Shown here piece by piece: positions 14,101 through 30,301 of a stretch of 39,126 nt of DNA (position 1 is the stretch's first letter; each line of letters opens with the position of its first letter). A program made the translations under genes and the position numbers. The DNA comes from a virus (lineage: Duplodnaviria > Caudoviricetes). Where the stretch lies: IMG/VR virus record IMGVR_UViG_3300020045_005785, positions 1 through 39,126 of that record; one strand, written 5' to 3'. The notes below the pieces were generated by a model that did not search any database, was not told where the DNA came from, and was given only the letters and a program-made list of their open reading frames with translations.

Positions 14101-14310
14101 AGTTTGCGCACCTTTTGCGCACCTATTTGCACAGTAAATTATCAATGTTTATAGTACTTAACACGTTTTTTACTGTGAATGCACACTTAAAACGTTTTAA
14201 AAAAATATATTTTTATTTTTATTTTATTTATTATATTTCTACGTGCACAGTGTGAATGCGCACTAAAAACGCTGTTAAGTATTGAATTTACTAACTTTCT
14301 ACTGTGCAAA
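14101..14310. other. putative replication origin
   Basis: Non-coding gap between the two replication genes, with TGC(G)CAC repeats, nested inverted repeats and an AT-rich core. Confidence 0.55.
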
Positions 14311-17067: not shown

Positions 17068-17985
17068 TTAGAAAAGTGTTGATTTATTAATATCGCCTCT
17101 GCCGTTCCAAAATATAGATTCAAAGACTTTCTTTTTATTATTAGTTGCGGACAAACTCGAGCGATGTTTAAACATTTCAATCTTTTCAAATGGTGCATCA
17201 TACTCAGATAAATAAGCGGGATATTCTAAATTTGCAAACCAATCATAAAATTCATCGTGATTGAAACCGCCCTCTTTATATTCTCCAGTTCCTTTATACG
17301 GAATATCACAATAAATAATTGGGTTGTTACCTATTATTTTTATATCTTGGTAGCTTTTATTATTTATCTGTAGGTTCTGTAGGTTCTGTAGGTTCTGTAG
17401 TCGTGTTAAGTGTTCTACTAATTCTAAGTTTTGAACATCGCACCTTTTTTCAGTTATTTTCTTAACGTGGCTACAAAATGCAATCCTACGCTTTTGAATA
17501 TCTTTTATTTTAAAAATACCATCCGTATTTAAACCTAACTTAAACATTGCGGTTTCATCTAAATTAACTATTAATTCGTGCGCAAGTCTTTTAAATTCCT
17601 CGATATCTGCACCATACAAATAAGATCTTTGACTATTACCAAAACTCCAACAACTCATTACAAAACCGCTATACCAATCCGCATCTTCATTGCTTTTATT
17701 TATTTGTTTATGAAACTCCTCACGAGTTACCCATTCGTAGAATTTATGCTCTAATTCTTTATTATCTTTTAAGTATGATACCAAACTATAAATGTGTTTA
17801 TTTAGTTCGTTATAATGTACGTTAAATCGATAATCACGAATAGCGGTAAAACTTATCGAACCACCACCTCCAAACAAATCATAAAAATCGGTTATTCCGT
17901 TATGACGTTGTGTAATCTTTTGTAAAATATCTGAAGCTAATTTTCGCTTGCTGCCCATATAGGGGATTCCTAATTTTTGTTTCAT
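17068..17985 (-). CDS. D12/Dam-like N6-adenine DNA methyltransferase
   Basis: PYMGSK, DLFGGGGS (SAM binding) and YCDIPY (variant of DPPY). Confidence 0.85.
   Translation of the reverse strand: MKQKLGIPYMGSKRKLASDILQKITQRHNGITDFYDLFGGGGSISFTAIRDYRFNVHYNELNKHIYSLVSYLKDNKELEHKFYEWVTREEFHKQINKSNEDADWYSGFVMSCWSFGNSQRSYLYGADIEEFKRLAHELIVNLDETAMFKLGLNTDGIFKIKDIQKRRIAFCSHVKKITEKRCDVQNLELVEHLTRLQNLQNLQNLQINNKSYQDIKIIGNNPIIYCDIPYKGTGEYKEGGFNHDEFYDWFANLEYPAYLSEYDAPFEKIEMFKHRSSLSATNNKKKVFESIFWNGRGDINKSTLF
17367..17400. repeat. in-frame 9-bp tandem repeat (TCTGTAGGT x3.8) encoding LQN repeats
   Basis: Directly visible. Confidence 0.9.
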
Positions 17986-22614: not shown

Positions 22615-22718
22615 CAAAGATAAAACTAATAATTGAATAAATTACACTTATGCGTTAATTTATAAACGTTCTAAATTACACTTATAATTTTTTTATGTGA
22701 CATTTATGTATATCTTTG
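22615..22718. promoter_or_regulatory. divergent promoter region with candidate operators
   Basis: TATCTTTG on minus (22615-22622) and plus (22711-22718); TAAATTACACTTAT at 22638 and 22672; imperfect palindrome at 22658-22676. Confidence 0.75.
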
Positions 22719-22740
22719 TTGAAAATAAAACTATAAAATT

Positions 22741-22992
22741 ATGGAAAATCAAGTGTACAGGGTTAATATGGAAAAAAGTGTCGATTTAGAATTTTATGTT
22801 TGTCACACAAACGAAATAGAACCATATAAATCAATTAGAGAAATAGGTATTCAATTAATTATTAACGATAAGCAACTTGATGCTTCATTAGAACCTCAGG
22901 AATTAGATTCTTTTATAAAGTATTTAATAGATTGTAAAAACTACATTACAAAATTTAACAAAGAAAGTATTCCAGAACCAAACGAAAAATAA
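22741..22992 (+). CDS. hypothetical protein
   Basis: 83 aa, first gene of the rightward transcript. Confidence 0.65.
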   Translation: MENQVYRVNMEKSVDLEFYVCHTNEIEPYKSIREIGIQLIINDKQLDASLEPQELDSFIKYLIDCKNYITKFNKESIPEPNEK

Positions 22993-22994
22993 AT

Positions 22995-23144
22995 ATGAAA
23001 AAACTACCAAAAGAACAGCACAAAAAACGGGTTTTACTATTCGTAGAACCCGAAATAGTGCAGGAATTGACAAAAGAAACGTGTCAATCGATTAGCAAAA
23101 CAGCAATCAAAAAAGAATATCGCAAACGTTTAAAAAATAAATAG
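22995..23144 (+). CDS. small basic protein, possibly ribbon-helix-helix (49 aa)
   Basis: Read manually: MKKLPKEQHKKRVLLFVEPEIVQEL... Confidence 0.55.
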   Translation: MKKLPKEQHKKRVLLFVEPEIVQELTKETCQSISKTAIKKEYRKRLKNK

Positions 23145-23282
23145 AGATGAAAGATAATTTAGAACAAATCAAAAGAGATGTTAGATTTATTACTATAATA
23201 GTTGCAGTTTTTGCAGGTGTAAAAATAGGACATTTTTTATTCTAGATTATTAATAACTTTTAGAAATCTATAAAAAAACATT

Positions 23283-23528
23283 ATGAAAACAGCAATGCAA
23301 GAATTTCAAAACAGAATACCAGATGCCTCACAAATAAAACAATATATTTTTGAAAATGATCCAGACGAAAAAATGCTTGATGAATGGTTATTTGAAATAA
23401 TATTTAAAGGCGTTGATTGGATTGAAAAAGAAAAAAAGCAGATTATTGATGCTAAATTAGATAAAGATTATTCAAATAGAATAGAAGGAGCAGAACAATA
23501 CTACAACGAAACATTTAAAAACGATTAA
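23283..23528 (+). CDS. hypothetical protein
   Basis: MKTAMQ..EKKQIIDA..AEQYYNETF, a pattern I recall from Bacteroidetes phages. Confidence 0.7.
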   Translation: MKTAMQEFQNRIPDASQIKQYIFENDPDEKMLDEWLFEIIFKGVDWIEKEKKQIIDAKLDKDYSNRIEGAEQYYNETFKND

Positions 23529-23530
23529 TT

Positions 23531-23845
23531 ATGAAAAAACTACTAAAATTACTCAAGTATCTAAACAACTTGACAAATAATCATCTAACTGCAAAGGAAG
23601 AAGCAGACCAGATATTAAAGTTCTTGCTATTGAAAAACTCCACTATCAAATCTATTGAGATTTGGGAAGCATTGGAAATAGCAATGGAATGCGAAATGAA
23701 GAAAAGAGAGAGTGAAGCAGCATACACTTGCCGTGCTATCAGCACAAAATGGAAATATCCTAGTAAAGTTTATGATCCAAACTTCGATAAACCATTATCA
23801 AATTTAGAAGTAGTTTATGAAATTGTAGAACCGGTAAAAAATTAG
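23531..23845 (+). CDS. hypothetical protein
   Basis: 104 aa, packed in the operon. Confidence 0.65.
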   Translation: MKKLLKLLKYLNNLTNNHLTAKEEADQILKFLLLKNSTIKSIEIWEALEIAMECEMKKRESEAAYTCRAISTKWKYPSKVYDPNFDKPLSNLEVVYEIVEPVKN

Positions 23846-23848
23846 ATT

Positions 23849-24109
23849 ATGGAATTTGAAAAATTAGAATTTGAGGCAATAAGTGGTTTTAAATCGTATC
23901 AAATTAGAAGGAAAGACAATCTAATAATTGCTGTAGTTACTGGTTTATCGAATAATGAAAATTTAAAGAACGCAACATTATTTGAATCAGCTCCAGAAAT
24001 GTTTGAAATGTTGAAAGATTTATTATCAATGTACACAAATACAGATAAGCCAAGTGTTAGGCTTATTTTAAATGCTAAACAACTACTAACAAAAATAACT
24101 GAATTATGA
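23849..24109 (+). CDS. hypothetical protein
   Basis: NA.L...APEM.E.L motif common in small phage proteins. Confidence 0.7.
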   Translation: MEFEKLEFEAISGFKSYQIRRKDNLIIAVVTGLSNNENLKNATLFESAPEMFEMLKDLLSMYTNTDKPSVRLILNAKQLLTKITEL

Positions 24110-24297
24110 TAGCAATAGCAATAATATTCATAATAGTTTTATTCTCATTTGTAATTGGTTTAATACTTATTTTAATCGAAGTAATCAATAAAAAGGATGA
24201 ACTTAAAAAGCAAGTTGAGGATTTAAACAAAGATAACAACGGTCTTTGTAAGGAAAATTTAGAGTTGATTGATAGGTTGATCAATGGTGGAATATAA
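24106..24297 (+). CDS. small membrane protein whose TAA stop forms the left boundary of the cassette array
   Basis: N-terminal TM helix plus coiled coil; ends GGAATATAA|C. Confidence 0.65.
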   Translation: MIAIAIIFIIVLFSFVIGLILILIEVINKKDELKKQVEDLNKDNNGLCKENLELIDRLINGGI

Positions 24298-24422
24298 CGG
24301 CGGACGCTACACGATGTCTGGGAAAAGCGCACACCCAGACTTCGGAAATGACAAATTAAAAAGGTGCAAAACAAACTTTAAATTTAACCCGAAACCCAGC
24401 TATTGTGTAGTATATATTACTG
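24292..24422 (-). repeat. attC-like site 1 (degenerate: ATTA in place of GTTA)
   Basis: TAAC 24295, arms CTACACGAT..CTGGG / CCCAG..ATTGTGTAG; homologous to site 8. Confidence 0.75.
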
Positions 24423-24450
24423 GCTGTGTTTTTATTCAACAACAAATATT

Positions 24451-24792
24451 ATGGCAACAAAAAATGGAATTGGATATTCTCCATTATCAGACAAAGTTTA
24501 TTTAGGAAAACAGAATACAGAAAAAGGAATGTGGACAGGCGCAAAAGAAGATATTACGCATCAATTTTTAGATGTATCGTTTGCTTATTTTGAAGAAAAC
24601 ACAATTAGGAATATCGGAAGTTCGGGAGGAAAAGAAAATCTTTTTATCAATGTGAAAAATGATAAAGCAGGAATTGAAAAGATAATTAAAAATCTAACTA
24701 AGCGGTTAGTTGAGCTAACATATCCAGTAACGTTAAAAATAAACGATGACAGCCTATGTACCAACACGCTTTCGGCTGTTATTGTTTATTGA
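24451..24792 (+). CDS. cassette A hypothetical protein (113 aa, MATKNGIGYSPLSDK...)
   Basis: ATG at 24451 after an AT-rich leader; reads through site 2. Confidence 0.65.
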   Translation: MATKNGIGYSPLSDKVYLGKQNTEKGMWTGAKEDITHQFLDVSFAYFEENTIRNIGSSGGKENLFINVKNDKAGIEKIIKNLTKRLVELTYPVTLKINDDSLCTNTLSAVIVY

Positions 24793-24801
24793 TTGTTACT
24801 G
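24725..24801 (-). repeat. attC-like site 2
   Basis: TAAC 24728, arms AATAAACGATGACAGCC / GGCTGTTATTGTTTATT, GTTA 24795. Confidence 0.85.
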
Positions 24802-24863
24802 GTTGTTTTTCTTTTTTTTTTTTACGTGCAAATGAAAATAAATTAAAAGTTTCTTTGAATAAG

Positions 24864-24895
24864 TTTGCGTATTCAAAATATAATGATTATCTTTG
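24864..24895 (+). promoter_or_regulatory. internal promoter of cassette B (TTTG-20 nt-TATCTTTG)
   Basis: Matches the Bacteroidetes -33/-7 consensus, 31 nt before the ATG at 24927. Confidence 0.75.
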
Positions 24896-24926
24896 AATAT
24901 TATTAATAATTAAAAAACATAATCTT

Positions 24927-25082
24927 ATGAAAAAAGTAATTGATGGGGATTTAATGGAATGTTTAGAAACTTTCAATCCAGAAGAAACTAATGAAATTTT
25001 GCAAAAATATGAAAATGAAGGAAGATGGGAAGATGTTTCAATAGATAGTGATGGCGATATAATTTTATATTCAGAATTATGA
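24927..25082 (+). CDS. cassette B ORF1, acidic 51-aa protein
   Basis: Read manually: MKKVIDGDLMECLETFNPEE...DSDGDIILYSEL; ATGA overlap with the next ORF. Confidence 0.65.
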   Translation: MKKVIDGDLMECLETFNPEETNEILQKYENEGRWEDVSIDSDGDIILYSEL

Positions 25083-25273
25083 AACTGGAACAAATAAAAA
25101 ATGATGAAATACTTGAAATTAATAGTAAGGTAATTCATAAAACCACTCTTGAAGTTGGAACATATATAGGCGAATGCTTAGGATTTGGAAAATGTAAAAT
25201 TGATTACGGAAATGGAGATGCCTATCCACAACCAAAAAGAAATATAATGAGAATAGCAAATTATGAAAATTAA
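25079..25273 (+). CDS. cassette B ORF2, 64-aa hypothetical
   Basis: Translationally coupled ORF. Confidence 0.65.
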   Translation: MKLEQIKNDEILEINSKVIHKTTLEVGTYIGECLGFGKCKIDYGNGDAYPQPKRNIMRIANYEN

Positions 25274-25415
25274 AAGAATATTACATTTGTATTGCCTAAC
25301 GTTTTGTTTATTATCAGTTCCTTTTGGAAGATTTTCAATATGGATAACTGTTATATCATTTATACACCTTATTCCAATAATGGTTTTATATTATGATAAA
25401 AAATTTAAACTATGA
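25263..25415 (+). CDS. cassette B ORF3, 50-aa hydrophobic (about 2 TM) protein
   Basis: Read manually: MKIKRILHLYCLTFCLLSVPFGRFSIWITVISFIHLIPIMVLYY... Confidence 0.55.
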   Translation: MKIKRILHLYCLTFCLLSVPFGRFSIWITVISFIHLIPIMVLYYDKKFKL

Positions 25416-25567
25416 AAAAAGATAATAGAGGAGGCTCTCGCTTAAATGCGGGAGCTAAACCAAAGTATAATGAACCGACCAAAACAATGGCTTTTCGTAT
25501 TCCTATATCAAAAAACGATGAAGTCAAAAAGTTAGTCAGAGAAATTTTGGCAGGTTACGAGAGATAA
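25412..25567 (+). CDS. cassette B ORF4, 51-aa probable ribbon-helix-helix DNA-binding protein
   Basis: Read manually: MKKDNRGGSRLNAGAKPKYNEPTKTMAFRIP... Confidence 0.65.
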   Translation: MKKDNRGGSRLNAGAKPKYNEPTKTMAFRIPISKNDEVKKLVREILAGYER

Positions 25568-25573
25568 AATAGC

Positions 25574-25650
25574 CAGTAACGGTTCGCAGCCTTGTACTGC
25601 CGCCTATGCGGTTGCGAGATTTTGGCGGTAGTTCAAGACTGCTGTTATAG
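25574..25650 (-). repeat. attC-like site 3
   Basis: TAAC 25577, arms GCAGCCTTGTACTGCCGCC / GGCGGTAGTTCAAGACTGC, GTTA 25644; near copy of site 7. Confidence 0.88.
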
Positions 25651-25681
25651 GCAGGACGGCAATTTAAAAACAAATATTCTT

Positions 25682-26131
25682 ATGAAAAAAATACACATCA
25701 ATAACGATGATAATTATGCAACCCCTCCAGAATTGTACGAGGAATTGAATAAACGATTTAATTTTGATTTTGATCCTTGCCCTTACAATGAAAATGAAAT
25801 TGTAAACGATGGATTAAAAATTGAATGGGGAAAATCAAATTTTGTAAATCCTCCTTACAGCCAAAAACTAAAACAGCAATTTGTAAAAAAAGCAGTTGAG
25901 GAAATGAAAAAAGGAAAAGTTTCTGTTTTTCTTATTCCTGTATCTACAAGTACAAAATTATTTCACGAATGGATCAAACCAAACGCAAGTGAAATTGAGT
26001 TCTTAAAAGGTAGAATTAAGTTTGGGAAACGAGATCAAAATGGAAATTTCTATTTACCATTAAACGATGAAGGAAAAACACAATCAGGCACAAAAGATAG
26101 TATGATAGTCGTCTTTGGATCTCTATCGTAG
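25682..26131 (+). CDS. cassette C: phage-type N6-adenine DNA methyltransferase (149 aa)
   Basis: YATP, FDFDPC, NPPYS, VFLIP.ST.T..FH and FLKGRIKF motifs. Confidence 0.85.
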   Translation: MKKIHINNDDNYATPPELYEELNKRFNFDFDPCPYNENEIVNDGLKIEWGKSNFVNPPYSQKLKQQFVKKAVEEMKKGKVSVFLIPVSTSTKLFHEWIKPNASEIEFLKGRIKFGKRDQNGNFYLPLNDEGKTQSGTKDSMIVVFGSLS

Positions 26132-26137
26132 TCTTGC

Positions 26138-26267
26138 CTATAACGGAAAAGATTGTCGTGGTTGGGATAAAATAAAAACAGATAATTAAATTTAAAACAA
26201 AACTGAAAGATGAAAAACAATGTAAAAGTTCAAGACAATACCCAATCACTACAATCGTGTGTTAGTG
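26138..26267 (-). repeat. attC-like site 4
   Basis: TAAC 26141, arms GATTGTCGTGGTTGGG / CCCAATCACTACAATC, GTTA 26261. Confidence 0.85.
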
Positions 26268-26392
26268 ATAGTGCTACTATTTTTGAAGTAGAATTGTACC
26301 GATTTATAAATAAGCACGTAAAAAATGGATTGTCAAAAACTGATTTAATTCACAAAATGAAATACGTTCTTAAATCTTGTGAATTGTCGTGA
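26210..26392 (+). CDS. cassette D ORF1 (60 aa), starting inside the loop of site 4
   Basis: ATG at 26210 after an A-rich leader; no in-frame ATG soon after the site. Confidence 0.5.
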   Translation: MKNNVKVQDNTQSLQSCVSDSATIFEVELYRFINKHVKNGLSKTDLIHKMKYVLKSCELS

Positions 26393-26429
26393 GGTTTTTA
26401 AATAAAAAATAACTAATAAAATCAAAATT

Positions 26430-26597
26430 ATGAGAATATCAGAAGTAGAAGTAGGATTTAAGTTTGAACACGGAATAAAAGGAGATTGTGTCGTTATTGC
26501 AAAGACACCAAGAACAATAACTATTAAACATAAGTTCGGAACAACAAAAACAACTTTTCGTTATAAAGACGCTTATTTTTCACCTTCGGATTTTTAG
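26430..26597 (+). CDS. cassette D ORF2 (55 aa, MRISEVEVGFKFEHG...)
   Basis: Read manually; ends just before site 5. Confidence 0.65.
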   Translation: MRISEVEVGFKFEHGIKGDCVVIAKTPRTITIKHKFGTTKTTFRYKDAYFSPSDF

Positions 26598-26615
26598 CTA
26601 TTCAAACCGCATTAT

Positions 26616-26706
26616 CACTAACGGCGGATGATAGTGGCTGTTTGCCACTACAAAAGTTGTTTCGGAGGAAAATGGTTGTGCAAATAGCCATTATCATTTG
26701 TTATCA
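26616..26706 (-). repeat. attC-like site 5
   Basis: TAAC 26619, arms ATGATAGTGGCTGTTTGC / GCAAATAGCCATTATCAT, GTTA 26700. Confidence 0.88.
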
Positions 26707-26751
26707 GCATACCACTTAACACAATTTTTAAACAATTTAAAACACATAAAA

Positions 26752-27042
26752 ATGAACAAAGCAGATTTTTTTAAAAAGAACGACGAAAAATTTTTACCGT
26801 TAGGATTCGAAAAAGACGAATTAGACCCAATGTTTTTTTATTCAAAAAGTTTGGTTTCAGATGAAGAAATCGAAGAAAATGGAATGGACGAAGATGATGT
26901 TCCAAAATTACTATTTGGAAATACGGGAATTAACAGAGGCTTTTGCATTTATACAGGCGTTCATTTCGTTTGGCTCGGATGCGGAACTCCAGAGGAAGCA
27001 ATTAAATTTTCTGAAAATATAGTTGCATTTGAAGAATGTTGA
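26752..27042 (+). CDS. cassette E acidic hypothetical protein (96 aa)
   Basis: ATG at 26752; fills the cassette. Confidence 0.7.
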   Translation: MNKADFFKKNDEKFLPLGFEKDELDPMFFYSKSLVSDEEIEENGMDEDDVPKLLFGNTGINRGFCIYTGVHFVWLGCGTPEEAIKFSENIVAFEEC

Positions 27043-27059
27043 GCGACTCCAACGGTTGC

Positions 27060-27135
27060 TGATAACGTTAAAACTACACGCTGGTTGCCTATTTATTCCA
27101 ATGCTTCGGCAACTAGCTTGTAGTGATTGTTATAT
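27060..27135 (-). repeat. attC-like site 6
   Basis: TAAC 27063, arms ACTACACGCTGGTTGCC / GGCAACTAGCTTGTAGT, GTTA 27129; same ends as site 2. Confidence 0.88.
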
Positions 27136-27171
27136 TCTCGGCTTTTTTTACTCATTAAATAAATTAAAACA

Positions 27172-27465
27172 ATGAAAGCAAATAAAGAAAAATTAGATAT
27201 AATATTCAATTATTATACCCAAAATGAACTAGCAATTGCATTAGGAATTACGCAATGGAAGTTATTGCAAAAAATGCAAAATGATGATTTTACTCAGGTA
27301 GAAATCAATGATATTGACCGTATTTTTGAAAAAGAAATTAAGGAATCAAAAGAATATATCCACGATGTATTTATGGGAAAAATTAAAATACCACAAGATA
27401 TTTTAGATAAATCTTTTGAAGGTACAAAAGGAAAAATATTAAAATGGATTCCTGATAAAAAATAA
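27172..27465 (+). CDS. cassette F Cro/CI-like HTH protein (97 aa)
   Basis: YTQNELAIALGITQWKL..K....DFT..EI pattern. Confidence 0.65.
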   Translation: MKANKEKLDIIFNYYTQNELAIALGITQWKLLQKMQNDDFTQVEINDIDRIFEKEIKESKEYIHDVFMGKIKIPQDILDKSFEGTKGKILKWIPDKK

Positions 27466-27514
27466 CTAAATTTCAGCAAGAGTAGCTTTGGTTACAAAGT
27501 TGCTCGAAGCTGGA

Positions 27515-27590
27515 ATATAACGATTAGCAGCCTTGTACTGCCGCTATGCGGTTACGTAAATTCGGCGGTAGTTCAAGACTGCTGTTATGA
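27515..27590 (-). repeat. attC-like site 7
   Basis: TAAC 27518, GTTA 27584; arms nearly identical to site 3. Confidence 0.88.
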
Positions 27591-27623
27591 CCAGTGCCTA
27601 TACTAATTTTTAAATATAAACAA

Positions 27624-27953
27624 ATGAAACAATTACAGAAAAAAGATAAAGACAAAGTTGAACAAGTAAAGCAACAAGTTCAAGAAATACAAACTGTTTT
27701 TGATAGCAGAATTAGACCTCAAAAAAATCACACTTTATTTGAAATAAATATTGTTGAAAAAACAATTGAAAAAGCGGTGTTTGATGAATTACCAATTGTA
27801 AAATGGGAAGATGCCGTAAAAGGCAATATATCAACTCAAAATAAAGTGACTAAGAAAATAGACTGCATTTATATTTCTGCTTTAAATCGAAAGAATGTTG
27901 TTAAAATTTTAAAACGTGATTTTAAGCAGGATGTTTCGTGGCATTGGTCATAA
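27624..27953 (+). CDS. cassette G hypothetical protein (109 aa)
   Basis: ATG at 27624; its stop codon is the TAA of the TAAC box. Confidence 0.7.
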   Translation: MKQLQKKDKDKVEQVKQQVQEIQTVFDSRIRPQKNHTLFEINIVEKTIEKAVFDELPIVKWEDAVKGNISTQNKVTKKIDCIYISALNRKNVVKILKRDFKQDVSWHWS

Positions 27954-28079
27954 CGGCGGACGCTAACCGATGTTCAGGAAAAGTAATGACTGAACTTTCG
28001 GATTATTACAAATCTTACAGACACAAAACACATTTTAAATTTAACCTAAAGCCTGAATAGCGGTTAGCGTATGTTATCA
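27948..28079 (-). repeat. attC-like site 8
   Basis: TAAC 27951, arms ACGCTAACCGATGTTCAGG / CCTGAATAGCGGTTAGCGT, GTTA 28073. Confidence 0.88.
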
Positions 28080-28103
28080 CTTCGGCTTTTTAAATACAAT
28101 ATT

Positions 28104-28280
28104 ATGAACTTATTGACAGGTACAGTTACGGAAGTTTTATCAGAACCATTTATCCAATATAATAAATGGTGGGTAAAAGTAAAATACAATTGCTACGGCA
28201 GAATATCAGAAACAGAATTAATGTTTAACAGTATAGATTCAGCTTCAAAAGTTGATGTCGGTTTTGAGTTCGACTGTTAA
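28104..28280 (+). CDS. cassette H hypothetical protein (58 aa)
   Basis: ATG at 28104; fills the cassette. Confidence 0.7.
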   Translation: MNLLTGTVTEVLSEPFIQYNKWWVKVKYNCYGRISETELMFNSIDSASKVDVGFEFDC

Positions 28281-28285
28281 GCTGA

Positions 28286-28315
28286 GTGATAACTCTCTTA
28301 TTAGACCAACTCACC
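28286..28315 (-). other. candidate attI-like entry site (lone GTTA core with no hairpin)
   Basis: The minus strand reads GAGTTGGTCTAATAAGAGAG^TTATCAC; this closes cassette H. Confidence 0.5.
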
Positions 28316-28331
28316 ACAAAAACCCTTGAAA

Positions 28332-28625
28332 ATGTTGGAAAAACCCCTTGACAACACTTATTTTATCGAGTATTCAAATTACTTCGAATTTGAGGGCAAA
28401 ACCTTTTCTTTTCGTAAAAAAGAGTTATTTGATATAACCGGTATACCAAAACATATTGAATTGAAAAACAACAATAATTGTTTTGGGTATTGGATTAGTA
28501 GAAAATGGTTGTCATTGTCTAAAATAAAAGAAATGATAATAAATGAACCAAAAAAAGTTGATGTATCAGATTTACAATGGTACAATCAAATAAAATTAGA
28601 TCACGTCTTTAATTTAGGCAAATAA
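28332..28625 (+). CDS. hypothetical protein
   Basis: Last plus-strand ORF; overlaps the 3' end of the spanin gene. Confidence 0.65.
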   Translation: MLEKPLDNTYFIEYSNYFEFEGKTFSFRKKELFDITGIPKHIELKNNNNCFGYWISRKWLSLSKIKEMIINEPKKVDVSDLQWYNQIKLDHVFNLGK

Positions 28626-29617: not shown

Positions 29618-30009
29618 ATCTTACTTAATTCATAATCTTGTTTTAATAAGTCGTGGTCTTTTTTCAAAGCATCATATTTCTTTTCTAACTCGATATATTT
29701 TACAGTTAATTCTTTGTGTAGTTTTTCCCAATTTTGCGATACCTCAACTTCTCTAGTATAAGCTAATGACATATCGTTAAACTGTAATTGAATAGATTTG
29801 TAATGGTCTTTAACACAAGATACCTCGTATTGCATTTCTTCCATTCTGGTCTTATATTGCACTAAGAAAGTATTATACATTTCCGATATTGCCGTGACAA
29901 CATCAACATCCGTTTTCTTAATTTCACTATCAGTTTTTCGTTTTCCTCCGAAATACCAAGCTAATGGATACCCCAAAACAGCTCCCATTAATGCAATATA
30001 CTCAATCAT
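29614..30009 (-). CDS. membrane-anchored coiled-coil protein of the lysis module (likely start 30009)
   Basis: N-terminal TM helix plus coiled coil, coupled to the endolysin. Confidence 0.55.
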
Positions 30010-30013
30010 AATT

Positions 30014-30301
30014 CTAGTAGGTTTTTTGTTTGTAAAATAATCTGGCAATTATTACTGATAATACAATAATCATTTGCGTTTTTGTAAAATGTAACGGATC
30101 TAAAAATAATTCTTTAAATACATTCCAAACCGAAAGCCACAACAACACAAATTTAATAAAACTAAACTTATCGCCAATGAAAATATACAAAGAAATTAAC
30201 ATAAAAAATATTGCAGTTCCGATATAGTAAAAGCCGTGAATTGAATCTCCAATCACGGCAAATACTAAAGCGAAATATAATATTAGTTTACGGTCTATCA
30301 T
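30014..30301 (-). CDS. holin candidate (3-4 TM)
   Basis: 95 aa, very hydrophobic, basic C-terminus. Confidence 0.5.
   Translation of the reverse strand: MIDRKLILYFALVFAVIGDSIHGFYYIGTAIFFMLISLYIFIGDKFSFIKFVLLWLSVWNVFKELFLDPLHFTKTQMIIVLSVIIARLFYKQKTY

Follow-up and report, generated by a model that had tools for sequence, protein, structure and literature searches.

The stretch of DNA analysed here (the window; 39,126 nt, IMG/VR virus record IMGVR_UViG_3300020045_005785) is the complete 39 kb genome of a tailed phage, with a 121 nt terminal repeat and a CheckV value of 100. Between positions 24295 and 28293 it harbours a row of eight small gene cassettes, each comprised of a hairpin-forming site and a short cargo segment. 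Capsid, portal, terminase, tail, primase, helicase, exonuclease and endolysin genes were recognised with PHROGs and Pfam, the exonuclease being of the YqaJ family. Genes lie on the - strand throughout, except in a + strand island at approximately 22,700-28,600 that holds the array; the array region contains 12 co-oriented open reading frames (ORFs) at about 30% GC. An earlier reading of the window, made from its letters alone (the sequence-only reading), had described the genome as devoid of a tyrosine recombinase, and this holds: PF00589 found no match in its six frames, having matched 14 of 14 control genomes, comparison of its 62 ORFs with PHROGs and Pfam revealed no integrase, and a hidden Markov model built from 44 array-linked phage recombinases detected no remnant (best E value 0.98).

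Hairpins running from TAAC to GTTA, 70-126 nt in length, alternate with eight cargo segments of 221-786 bp. All eight had been reported previously, at lengths of 76-132 that arose from adding 3 nt per side and with GTTA ends throughout; the first in fact ends in ATTA. In each cargo, the 5' and 3' arms are reverse complements of one another over 8-10 bases, core included; a mismatch and then 3-4 further pairs usually come next. The arm pairs of cargo A to H are all as originally listed. Matches beyond the core between own partners sum to 51 of 64, a total reached by 2 of 40,320 permutations, the second because A and B have a common arm type. Counts of the TAACG..TGTTA motif by itself do not exceed chance in this AT-rich genome (8 against 4.5 expected, and 5 against 4.4), so the signal resides in the stem together with its cognate arms. 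With a stem-aware detector, 7 sites were picked up in the window, every one within the array, and 80 sites in 81 sequences as against 13 in their reversed versions. Broader site statistics derive from 504 cassettes parsed over all loci (363 phage, 141 host), overlapping loci having been deduplicated by sequence only. Folding of the + strand gave z values from -2.7 to -4.5 in seven of the eight window hairpins, with only -0.7 for hairpin 4, and this strand forms the more stable fold in all eight and in 298 of 362 phage sites.

The array, all of it on the + strand, starts where a 63 aa anchor gene ends (24106-24297), the stop codon of which is the TAA of the first core; the end of this gene also marks the array start in relatives L089 and L090. 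Site 1 (24295-24419), its right core decayed to ATTA, has 92-93% identical counterparts with an intact GTTA in L085 and L007, and a further one in L396. Cargo A with its arms (24416-24731) carries an ORF encoding a 113 aa DUF7446 protein (24451-24792) that runs on into site 2 (24728-24798), sites 88-97% identical to which occur in L088, L089 and L090 with different arms on both sides. Cargo B (24795-25580) contains four small ORFs (24927-25082, 25079-25273, 25263-25415 and 25412-25567) and, at 24864-24895, a promoter-like TTTG-N20-TAnnTTTG sequence, the sole + strand match in the array to what we take to be the Bacteroidetes-type consensus. Site 3 (25577-25647), of the same type as site 7, precedes cargo C (25644-26144), in which ORF 25682-26131 encodes a 149 aa Dam-family adenine methyltransferase (PF05869, E value 2.5e-20, 73 bits against a cut-off of 28; an orphan methyltransferase according to PADLOC). 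Site 4 (26141-26264) has the weakest fold, contains the start of ORF 26210-26392, and is 72-77% identical to sites in six phage loci.

Cargo D (26261-26622) consists of the end of that ORF (60 aa) and ORF 26430-26597 (55 aa), without any family assignment. Site 5 (26619-26703) recurs at 83-88% identity, together with arm E, in L274 and L396, and is followed by cargo E (26700-27066; ORF 26752-27042, 96 aa). Site 6 (27063-27132) is 96% identical to a site in L267 and about 80% identical to one in the host array L398. Next come cargo F (27129-27521; ORF 27172-27465, 97 aa), site 7 (27518-27587) and cargo G (27584-27954), the 109 aa ORF of which (27624-27953; phrog_15043) has its stop codon within the core. 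Site 8 (27951-28076), of the same type as site 1, is found at 94-98% identity in L031, L339 and L396 and at 84-86% in host arrays L397 and L399; cargo H (28073-28293; ORF 28104-28280, 58 aa, phrog_8110) completes the row. Apart from the methyltransferase and the DUF7446 protein, Pfam, PHROGs and PADLOC assigned no function to the cargo, and only C has an anti-defence annotation; by a crude count, a methyltransferase-type motif occurs in 18 of 363 phage and 1 of 141 host cassettes. The reading of ORF A into hairpin 2 and the start of an ORF inside hairpin 4 mean that shuffling would change protein ends.

Two features elsewhere in the genome are of related kinds. A second adenine methyltransferase, of the D12 class (305 aa), is encoded at 17068-17985, outside the array and amid replication genes. 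Between the helicase and primase genes, a 119 nt stretch bounded by TAAC and GTTA and with an internal repeat (14159-14277) folds well; it was not scored as a site of this family, and is possibly an origin or regulatory element.

Site architecture and the mobile unit

In the outer 3' arm of the + strand, T occupies position 11 in 363 of 363 phage cassettes and lies opposite G in 290, and positions 12-15 pair in 66-88% of them, the cassette detector having constrained arm positions 1-9 only. The inner arm repeats this pattern (T in 97% and A in 98% of 362 phage sites), and in the 141 host sites it pairs without gaps over 14 positions, with a mismatch at position 2 and G.T at position 11. The folded site reads as two arms of about 11 bp, T-N6-TAAC in the outer and T-N6-WARC in the inner, around a centre seemingly 2-4 nt longer on its 5' side, an asymmetry spotted by eye in the eight window sites and then built into the detectors.

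Such a structure invites comparison with the attC sites of integrons, and one explanation of the array is that it forms a cluster of attC sites lacking integron-integrases (CALIN), its true attC sites being read by an IntI that the host or some other element supplies. For integrons, Bouvier 2009 (PMC2727003) gives imperfect hairpins of 57-142 nt, with an extra G in the L'' box as the defining feature, and arm pairing of 9-11 nt in most cassettes. The present hairpins and arms fit these dimensions; pairing of that length being common in cassettes, arm length is no distinguishing mark by itself. AAC and GTT cores are likewise present, and the boxes of one cassette are complementary, in 8 of 8 arm pairs, with ATTA at site 1. 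Against true attC sites, the inner arm contains no extrahelical G or other bulge, the extra bases sitting in the centre, and the RYYY/RRRY part of the R boxes is not conserved.

Of 80 phage loci retrieved through their endolysin, 16 contain two or more sites. A block kept in fixed order, with indels unrelated to the cores, was looked for as the contrary outcome; cassette order is not fixed among the relatives, L089 sharing the left anchor gene and the right flank with nine different cassettes between them, and homology breaks at cores. The same unit beside different neighbours, with core-exact junctions, was found for A and E. L085 contains a copy of hairpin 1 with cargo A, between unrelated flanks, that is 93.8% identical over the stretch bounded by the AAC of site 1 and the TAAC preceding site 2. 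Cargo E is present arm to arm in assembled contigs (not reads) of sequencing runs X5, X8 and X14, from three studies, with 1-4 substitutions, one gap and new neighbours, its flanks changing exactly between T and GTTA on one side and between TAAC and G on the other. Foreign flanks of 33 and 93 letters are present in X5, and of 35 and 138 in X14; in X8, where cargo E abuts a terminal site of the type found in phages with a recombinase, the right flank comprises only 26 letters, below the bar of 31. Another assembled contig, from X1, carries 26702-27057 of this region. Homology also begins or ends between TAAC and G in L007, L031, L069 and L002. Overall, breaks fall between Y and G around AAC, the exact bond not being placeable, and breaks at the other core also occur. 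Taken with the permutation test on the arms, these breaks bear out the proposal that the array consists of site-specific gene cassettes with split cognate arms.

The extent of the mobile unit was judged from ten cargo pairs at least 80% identical. The upstream neighbour differs in nine, and the upstream hairpin is kept (at least 80% identity) in six of these; where both neighbours differ, the upstream hairpin is the better conserved in three of three cases, and the downstream hairpin was kept in none of three. Retention of the upstream hairpin implies that the usual mobile unit is probably the hairpin plus the gene after it, with the + strand playing the part of the attC bottom strand. In the usual integron geometry, a gene precedes its own attC site on the top strand. 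By that standard every one of the eight window cassettes has its gene or genes inverted, as have 333 of 363 phage cassettes; the classical arrangement is found in 115 of 141 host cassettes. The classical unit implied by the sequence-only reading, with each hairpin assigned to its upstream gene, was rejected on the basis of the junctions; circle junctions folded computationally had used that assignment and are relied upon for arm pairing only.

Orientation bears equally on the suggestion that the hairpins are RNA elements, acting as processing sites, leaders or terminators of an early operon, with the arms a by-product. In the phage, the better-folding strand is the transcribed one, and phage cassette ORFs have their start codon inside the hairpin in 133 of 360 cases, with 71 of 360 stopping at the TAA of the core. 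Contrary to such a role, the orientation of the sites relative to the genes is the opposite in hosts, the arms pair across the gene rather than the hairpin, and an Rfam search returned no relevant family and nothing near the gathering score. As it also accounts for neither the core-exact junctions nor the recombinase linkage described below, this explanation appears extremely improbable.

Frames around unrelated genes

The hairpin, arms and a little untranslated DNA of a cassette can be regarded as a frame, and frames recur around different genes. Frame F surrounds nine proteins, frame H nine and frame E three, with no pairwise BLAST similarity among those of F or those of H. Frame B encloses a different middle gene in L069 and L267; in L069, the promoter region and last gene of cargo B are kept and the middle gene is swapped. 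Among 141 pairs of phage cassettes with the same 15 nt arm and unrelated genes, the 30 bases beyond the 3' and 5' arms were common (score at least 15) in 16 and 28 respectively; in 2,000 control pairs the figures were 2 and 9. One gene can also have different surroundings: gene G is found in three frames (the other two in L081 and L082) and without a frame in L083, L084 and L401, and genes A and C have also been seen frameless.

Recombination at the cores cannot replace a gene inside its frame, so a second process would make new cassettes, probably phage homologous or microhomology recombination. How cassettes are created is stated to be unknown in the accessible text of Cury 2016. The reuse of frames around unrelated genes, and the existence of the same gene with and without a frame, make cassette creation directly testable and provide a lead on how cassettes are made. 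At the left end of the array, the last codons of the anchor gene resemble the 3' end of the F frame, translated as the final residues of the protein (24260-24299; L089 2270-2335; L090 3510-3571), and no 5' partner arm was found upstream of this gene, which is possibly one caught acquiring, or losing, a frame.

Recombinase, predicted docking site and host arrays

Arrays of this type elsewhere adjoin a recombinase gene. Phage L015 encodes a 266 aa tyrosine recombinase directly after its array, and among 80 viral loci with homologs of this enzyme, sites of one orientation lie within 3 kb upstream in 52 of the 54 having that flank, the other orientation occurring in none; a site is found downstream in 1 of 72. 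When parts of a bacterial genome collection (3 of 64) were scanned for the site pattern, 139 stretches were detected, mostly in Bacteroidota (about 3,200 estimated in all), and in Flavobacterium sedimenticola more than 20 cassettes are headed by a 345 aa recombinase. The enzyme is encoded in 50 of 81 Flavobacterium genomes at an E value of 1e-60 or better, the query genome counted. Among 20 host loci, taken from 52 matches and selected for long flanks, sites are directly downstream of the recombinase gene in 11 of the 14 with a 3 kb flank, again with none in the other orientation, and upstream in 2 of 20. Phage enzymes comprise 266-271 aa; host enzymes are extended at the N terminus and comprise 345-580 aa. 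Measured against the sites, cargo genes and recombinase gene alike have opposite orientations in phage and host (L015 19581-20434 versus L322 13600-14792). Relatives of the host recombinase also occur on plasmids (H40, H41, H45-H69), at 52% identity in Chryseobacterium and 44-50% in Klebsiella, Aeromonas, Acinetobacter and Clostridium.

The array-linked recombinases form one clade apart from host XerC and XerD with support of 100/100, in trees comprising no IntI and with long branches meeting at the root. Against the integron-integrase model they score 150-203 bits, in two pieces, where the cut-off is 265, and they lack about 43 residues of the IntI4 insertion (query 249-273 spans IntI4 180-247); an extra segment, intI_Cterm, marks integron integrases in the part of Cury 2016 available. 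The enzyme is best read from these comparisons as a Xer-like recombinase, and not as IntI-like in the defining sense, the type that the sequence-only reading had envisaged; as that reading proposed, any enzyme acting on the array has to come from outside this genome, which encodes no recombinase or remnant of one. No protein in 81 genomes exceeded the integron-integrase cut-off, with no control genome matching either, such that absence is not demonstrated by this search. The short recombinase had no match among cultured phages at an E value of 1e-40.

The window array finishes in a terminal half-site (28283-28312, + strand), made up of an arm and TAAC (28290-28293) followed by T rather than G, without a hairpin. 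An arm-TAAC-T half-site is situated 52-63 bp before the recombinase start codon in other phages (38 cases profiled) and about 100-160 bp after the recombinase in hosts, and is predicted from this placement to be the docking (attI-like) site. The slot held by the recombinase in those phages is occupied in the window by a gene encoding a 97 aa protein (28332-28625, + strand), for which 188 homologs were found. Across 37 viral loci with such homologs, sites lie within 1.5 kb upstream in 22 of 27 and downstream in 1 of 33, a half-site precedes the gene by about 35-55 bp in nearly all readable cases, and the fetched flanks contain no recombinase. Other recombinase-less arrays end at small genes of 59-71 aa (phrog_25647 in the two tested) or of a 77-86 aa family. 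The model of the 97 aa protein (pLDDT 79.8) has a weak NUMOD4-like fold, its best match being residues 1-64 of I-HmuI (Z 4.2, weak), a part we take to be the NUMOD4 DNA-binding domain; it has no Pfam or PHROG family, no Atlas match and no Foldseek match in the PDB.

Flavobacterium is the likely host. Of the cultured-phage records matching the array, 37 of 39 are Flavobacterium phages, the matches being limited to single cargo genes or hairpins (in Flavobacterium and Cellulophaga phages), and the Flavobacterium genome G016 contains a prophage-like stretch with frames A, E, F and H of this phage. Array DNA matches 7 of 201 Flavobacterium genomes, three times within recombinase-headed chromosomal arrays. 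In G027 (L397), a hairpin of the site 8 type and arm H surround an 88 aa gene, and a second cassette carries a gene of a phage RNase H family; in G076 (L398, a single 3.5 Mb contig), a hairpin of the site 6 type and frame F enclose a 101 aa gene; and in G036 (L399), a cassette with a site 8 type hairpin and a phrog_25872 gene is first in line beside the recombinase. These cassettes retain the phage orientation amid host-oriented neighbours, with junctions between TAAC and G. This shows that host platforms accept phage-type sites, present-day cutting of the window array being a separate matter, and reversed cassettes with the hairpins or frames of this phage in host arrays make action in trans likely. 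Host arrays also contain duplicated cassettes, in tandem in L398 (2523-4157) and dispersed in L325 (1254-4913), as expected of copy-and-reinsert dynamics.

The reading that we consider probable is that the window carries a recombinase-less phage row of eight cassettes, belonging to an integron-like, rAID-1-type system found in the chromosomes of Bacteroidota (recombinase-associated clusters for acquired interbacterial defence, compared below) and rearranged in trans by a Xer-like recombinase of the host or of a co-infecting phage. When single-stranded, the + strand would fold into the two-armed site with its lopsided centre; the enzyme would cut within the AAC of the left core, freeing a circle of a hairpin plus the following gene, and this circle would insert at the half-site at 28290. 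With insertion at that point, H, at the end of the transcript, would be the newest cassette. The probable role of the cargo is to adapt the phage to its host, as with a methyltransferase acting against restriction. Such a system would constitute a programmed route for the turnover of phage accessory genes, for which random mosaicism is the usual explanation, and would do so in a phylum for which surveys report hardly any classical integrons. If correct, the use of folded single-stranded sites by a recombinase devoid of the IntI insertion would change the view of what integron chemistry requires.

Alternatively, the array may be a relic, assembled in an ancestor that had a recombinase and now altered solely by phage homologous recombination between repeated hairpins or frames, with no enzyme acting in trans. 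Consistent with this are the lack of a recombinase or its remnant, the different gene in its slot, the decay of site 1, the recurrence of hairpins at 70-98% identity, sufficient for exchange, in a phage encoding a YqaJ exonuclease, and the swapping of genes inside frames. By contrast, a relic would not be expected to show near-identical cargo breaking off exactly at both cores into unrelated flanks, seven of eight sites and all arm pairs intact, or a terminal half-site kept before the 97 aa gene in nearly every locus read, and recombinase-less arrays are common rather than eroded. We regard the relic as unlikely.

Several observations nonetheless weigh against rearrangement in trans as set out above. 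The terminal site of the window departs from the consensus of recombinase-bearing phages and, with the lost G of site 1, fits decay. The link between hairpin and cargo is not strict: the hairpin upstream of cargo E is a different one in X5 and X14, and the arms around hairpin 2 differ in three phages, so that crossing over at the other core, or homologous exchange, plays a part as well. As in the window, a G homolog in L081 follows an F-frame cassette. Phage and host pools mix little: 4 of 97 cassettes in host arrays are phage-oriented, plus the one in L399 missed by the parser, reversal is seen in 2 of 363 phage cassettes, and DNA identity stays below 80% in every cargo pair of phage and host. 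The longer 5' centre was assumed by the detectors, so its frequency is not independent evidence. The host is one that we infer. No public sequencing run contains more than 13% of the words of the array or supplies reads of this phage, none of RNA is listed as containing the array, and circle joints of this phage were not found in the runs.

A more speculative extension, which we advance tentatively as doubtful, is that Bacteroidota phages act as cassette factories, in which phage recombination drops genes into frames, a non-IntI recombinase shuffles the products in trans and hosts sometimes archive them. In this scheme the 97 aa protein encoded in the recombinase slot might assist in recruiting or controlling the enzyme. 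It would, if true, make visible a route for cassette birth and a two-way trade of genes between phage and host on one platform.

Relationship to rAID-1 clusters and integrons

The rAID-1 clusters of Bacteroidales are defined, in the accessible parts of the two papers describing them (bioRxiv 10.1101/471110; 10.1101/2025.05.03.651265), by a 5' XerD-like recombinase more than 44% identical to BF9343_RS08045, at least two co-oriented short genes with a GC content of 41% or less, conserved intergenic motifs and orphan immunity genes as cargo. Our comparison is based on two annotated Bacteroidales records, L402 and L403, with SMI1/KNR4, Imm26, PoNi-like and Tdi1 immunity genes. Their hairpins measure 41-53 nt and have a TAAT core, and the arms are cognate in 8 of 11 and 4 of 5 intervals, part of the exceptions coinciding with skipped or misparsed sites; their recombinases belong to the same clade as the Flavobacterium enzymes, at about 45% identity (the L402 enzyme serving as a proxy for BF9343_RS08045). 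The systems share a Xer-like recombinase of one clade heading co-oriented short low-GC genes, the latter also seen in the window array, and a build of core, hairpin, GTTA and cognate arm. The window array differs in being phage-borne, in lacking a recombinase and in having its genes face the opposite way relative to the sites; its left core is TAAC rather than TAAT, its hairpins measure 70-126 rather than 41-53 nt, and its cargo consists of a methyltransferase and phage orphans instead of immunity genes. In those same parts, the rAID-1 papers describe no cassette boundary, crossover or phage link, and these clusters of gut interbacterial defence would gain an assayable boundary, crossover and docking site.

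CALINs have been reported in lytic phages, with attC-like sites, no integrase and methyltransferase cargo, including in Polaribacter phage P12002L (Qi 2023, PMC9892861, accessible text). P12002L_attC1, the single one of six sites not recombined by IntI1 in that study, was detected here at 30008-30056 as a member of the present family. At least five family sites, mostly 49-59 nt, lie at 29150-39245 of this genome (L364), in two groups around methyltransferase and Mom-like genes, and each group ends in the same terminal sequence; attC2 of the same study reads here as a terminal half-site backwards. The available text of Qi 2023 treats the sites as ordinary attC and names no separate site family, enzyme or reversed geometry. 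Given that a single complete integron is reported for Bacteroidetes proper (Neron 2022), that genes are reversed in most phage cassettes and that the linked recombinases lack the IntI insertion, a classical CALIN is a very unlikely description of the window array.

Novelty, left unconfirmed in the sequence-only reading, is narrower, as the rAID-1 host platform and phage CALINs are already in print. In a literature that was mostly open-access, we found no description of reversed, recombinase-less arrays in Bacteroidota phages or of their capture by hosts, and the rAID-1 motif figure or supplements may already show the host motifs. The window array resembles integrons in its AAC and GTT cores, its imperfect hairpins formed from one preferred strand, the complementary arms within each cassette, a presumed crossover within AAC and, in arrays that have the enzyme, the polar arrangement with a predicted docking site adjoining a tyrosine recombinase gene. 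It differs from them in having no extrahelical base in the inner arm, a centre 2-4 nt longer on one side, an invariant T.G at arm position 11, a free RRRY/RYYY part, an enzyme without the IntI insertion and inverted phage genes. It works like a set of integron cassettes, is not a member of that class by the attC and IntI tests, and is best classed as a variant of the rAID-1 type that is carried by a phage and lacks the enzyme.

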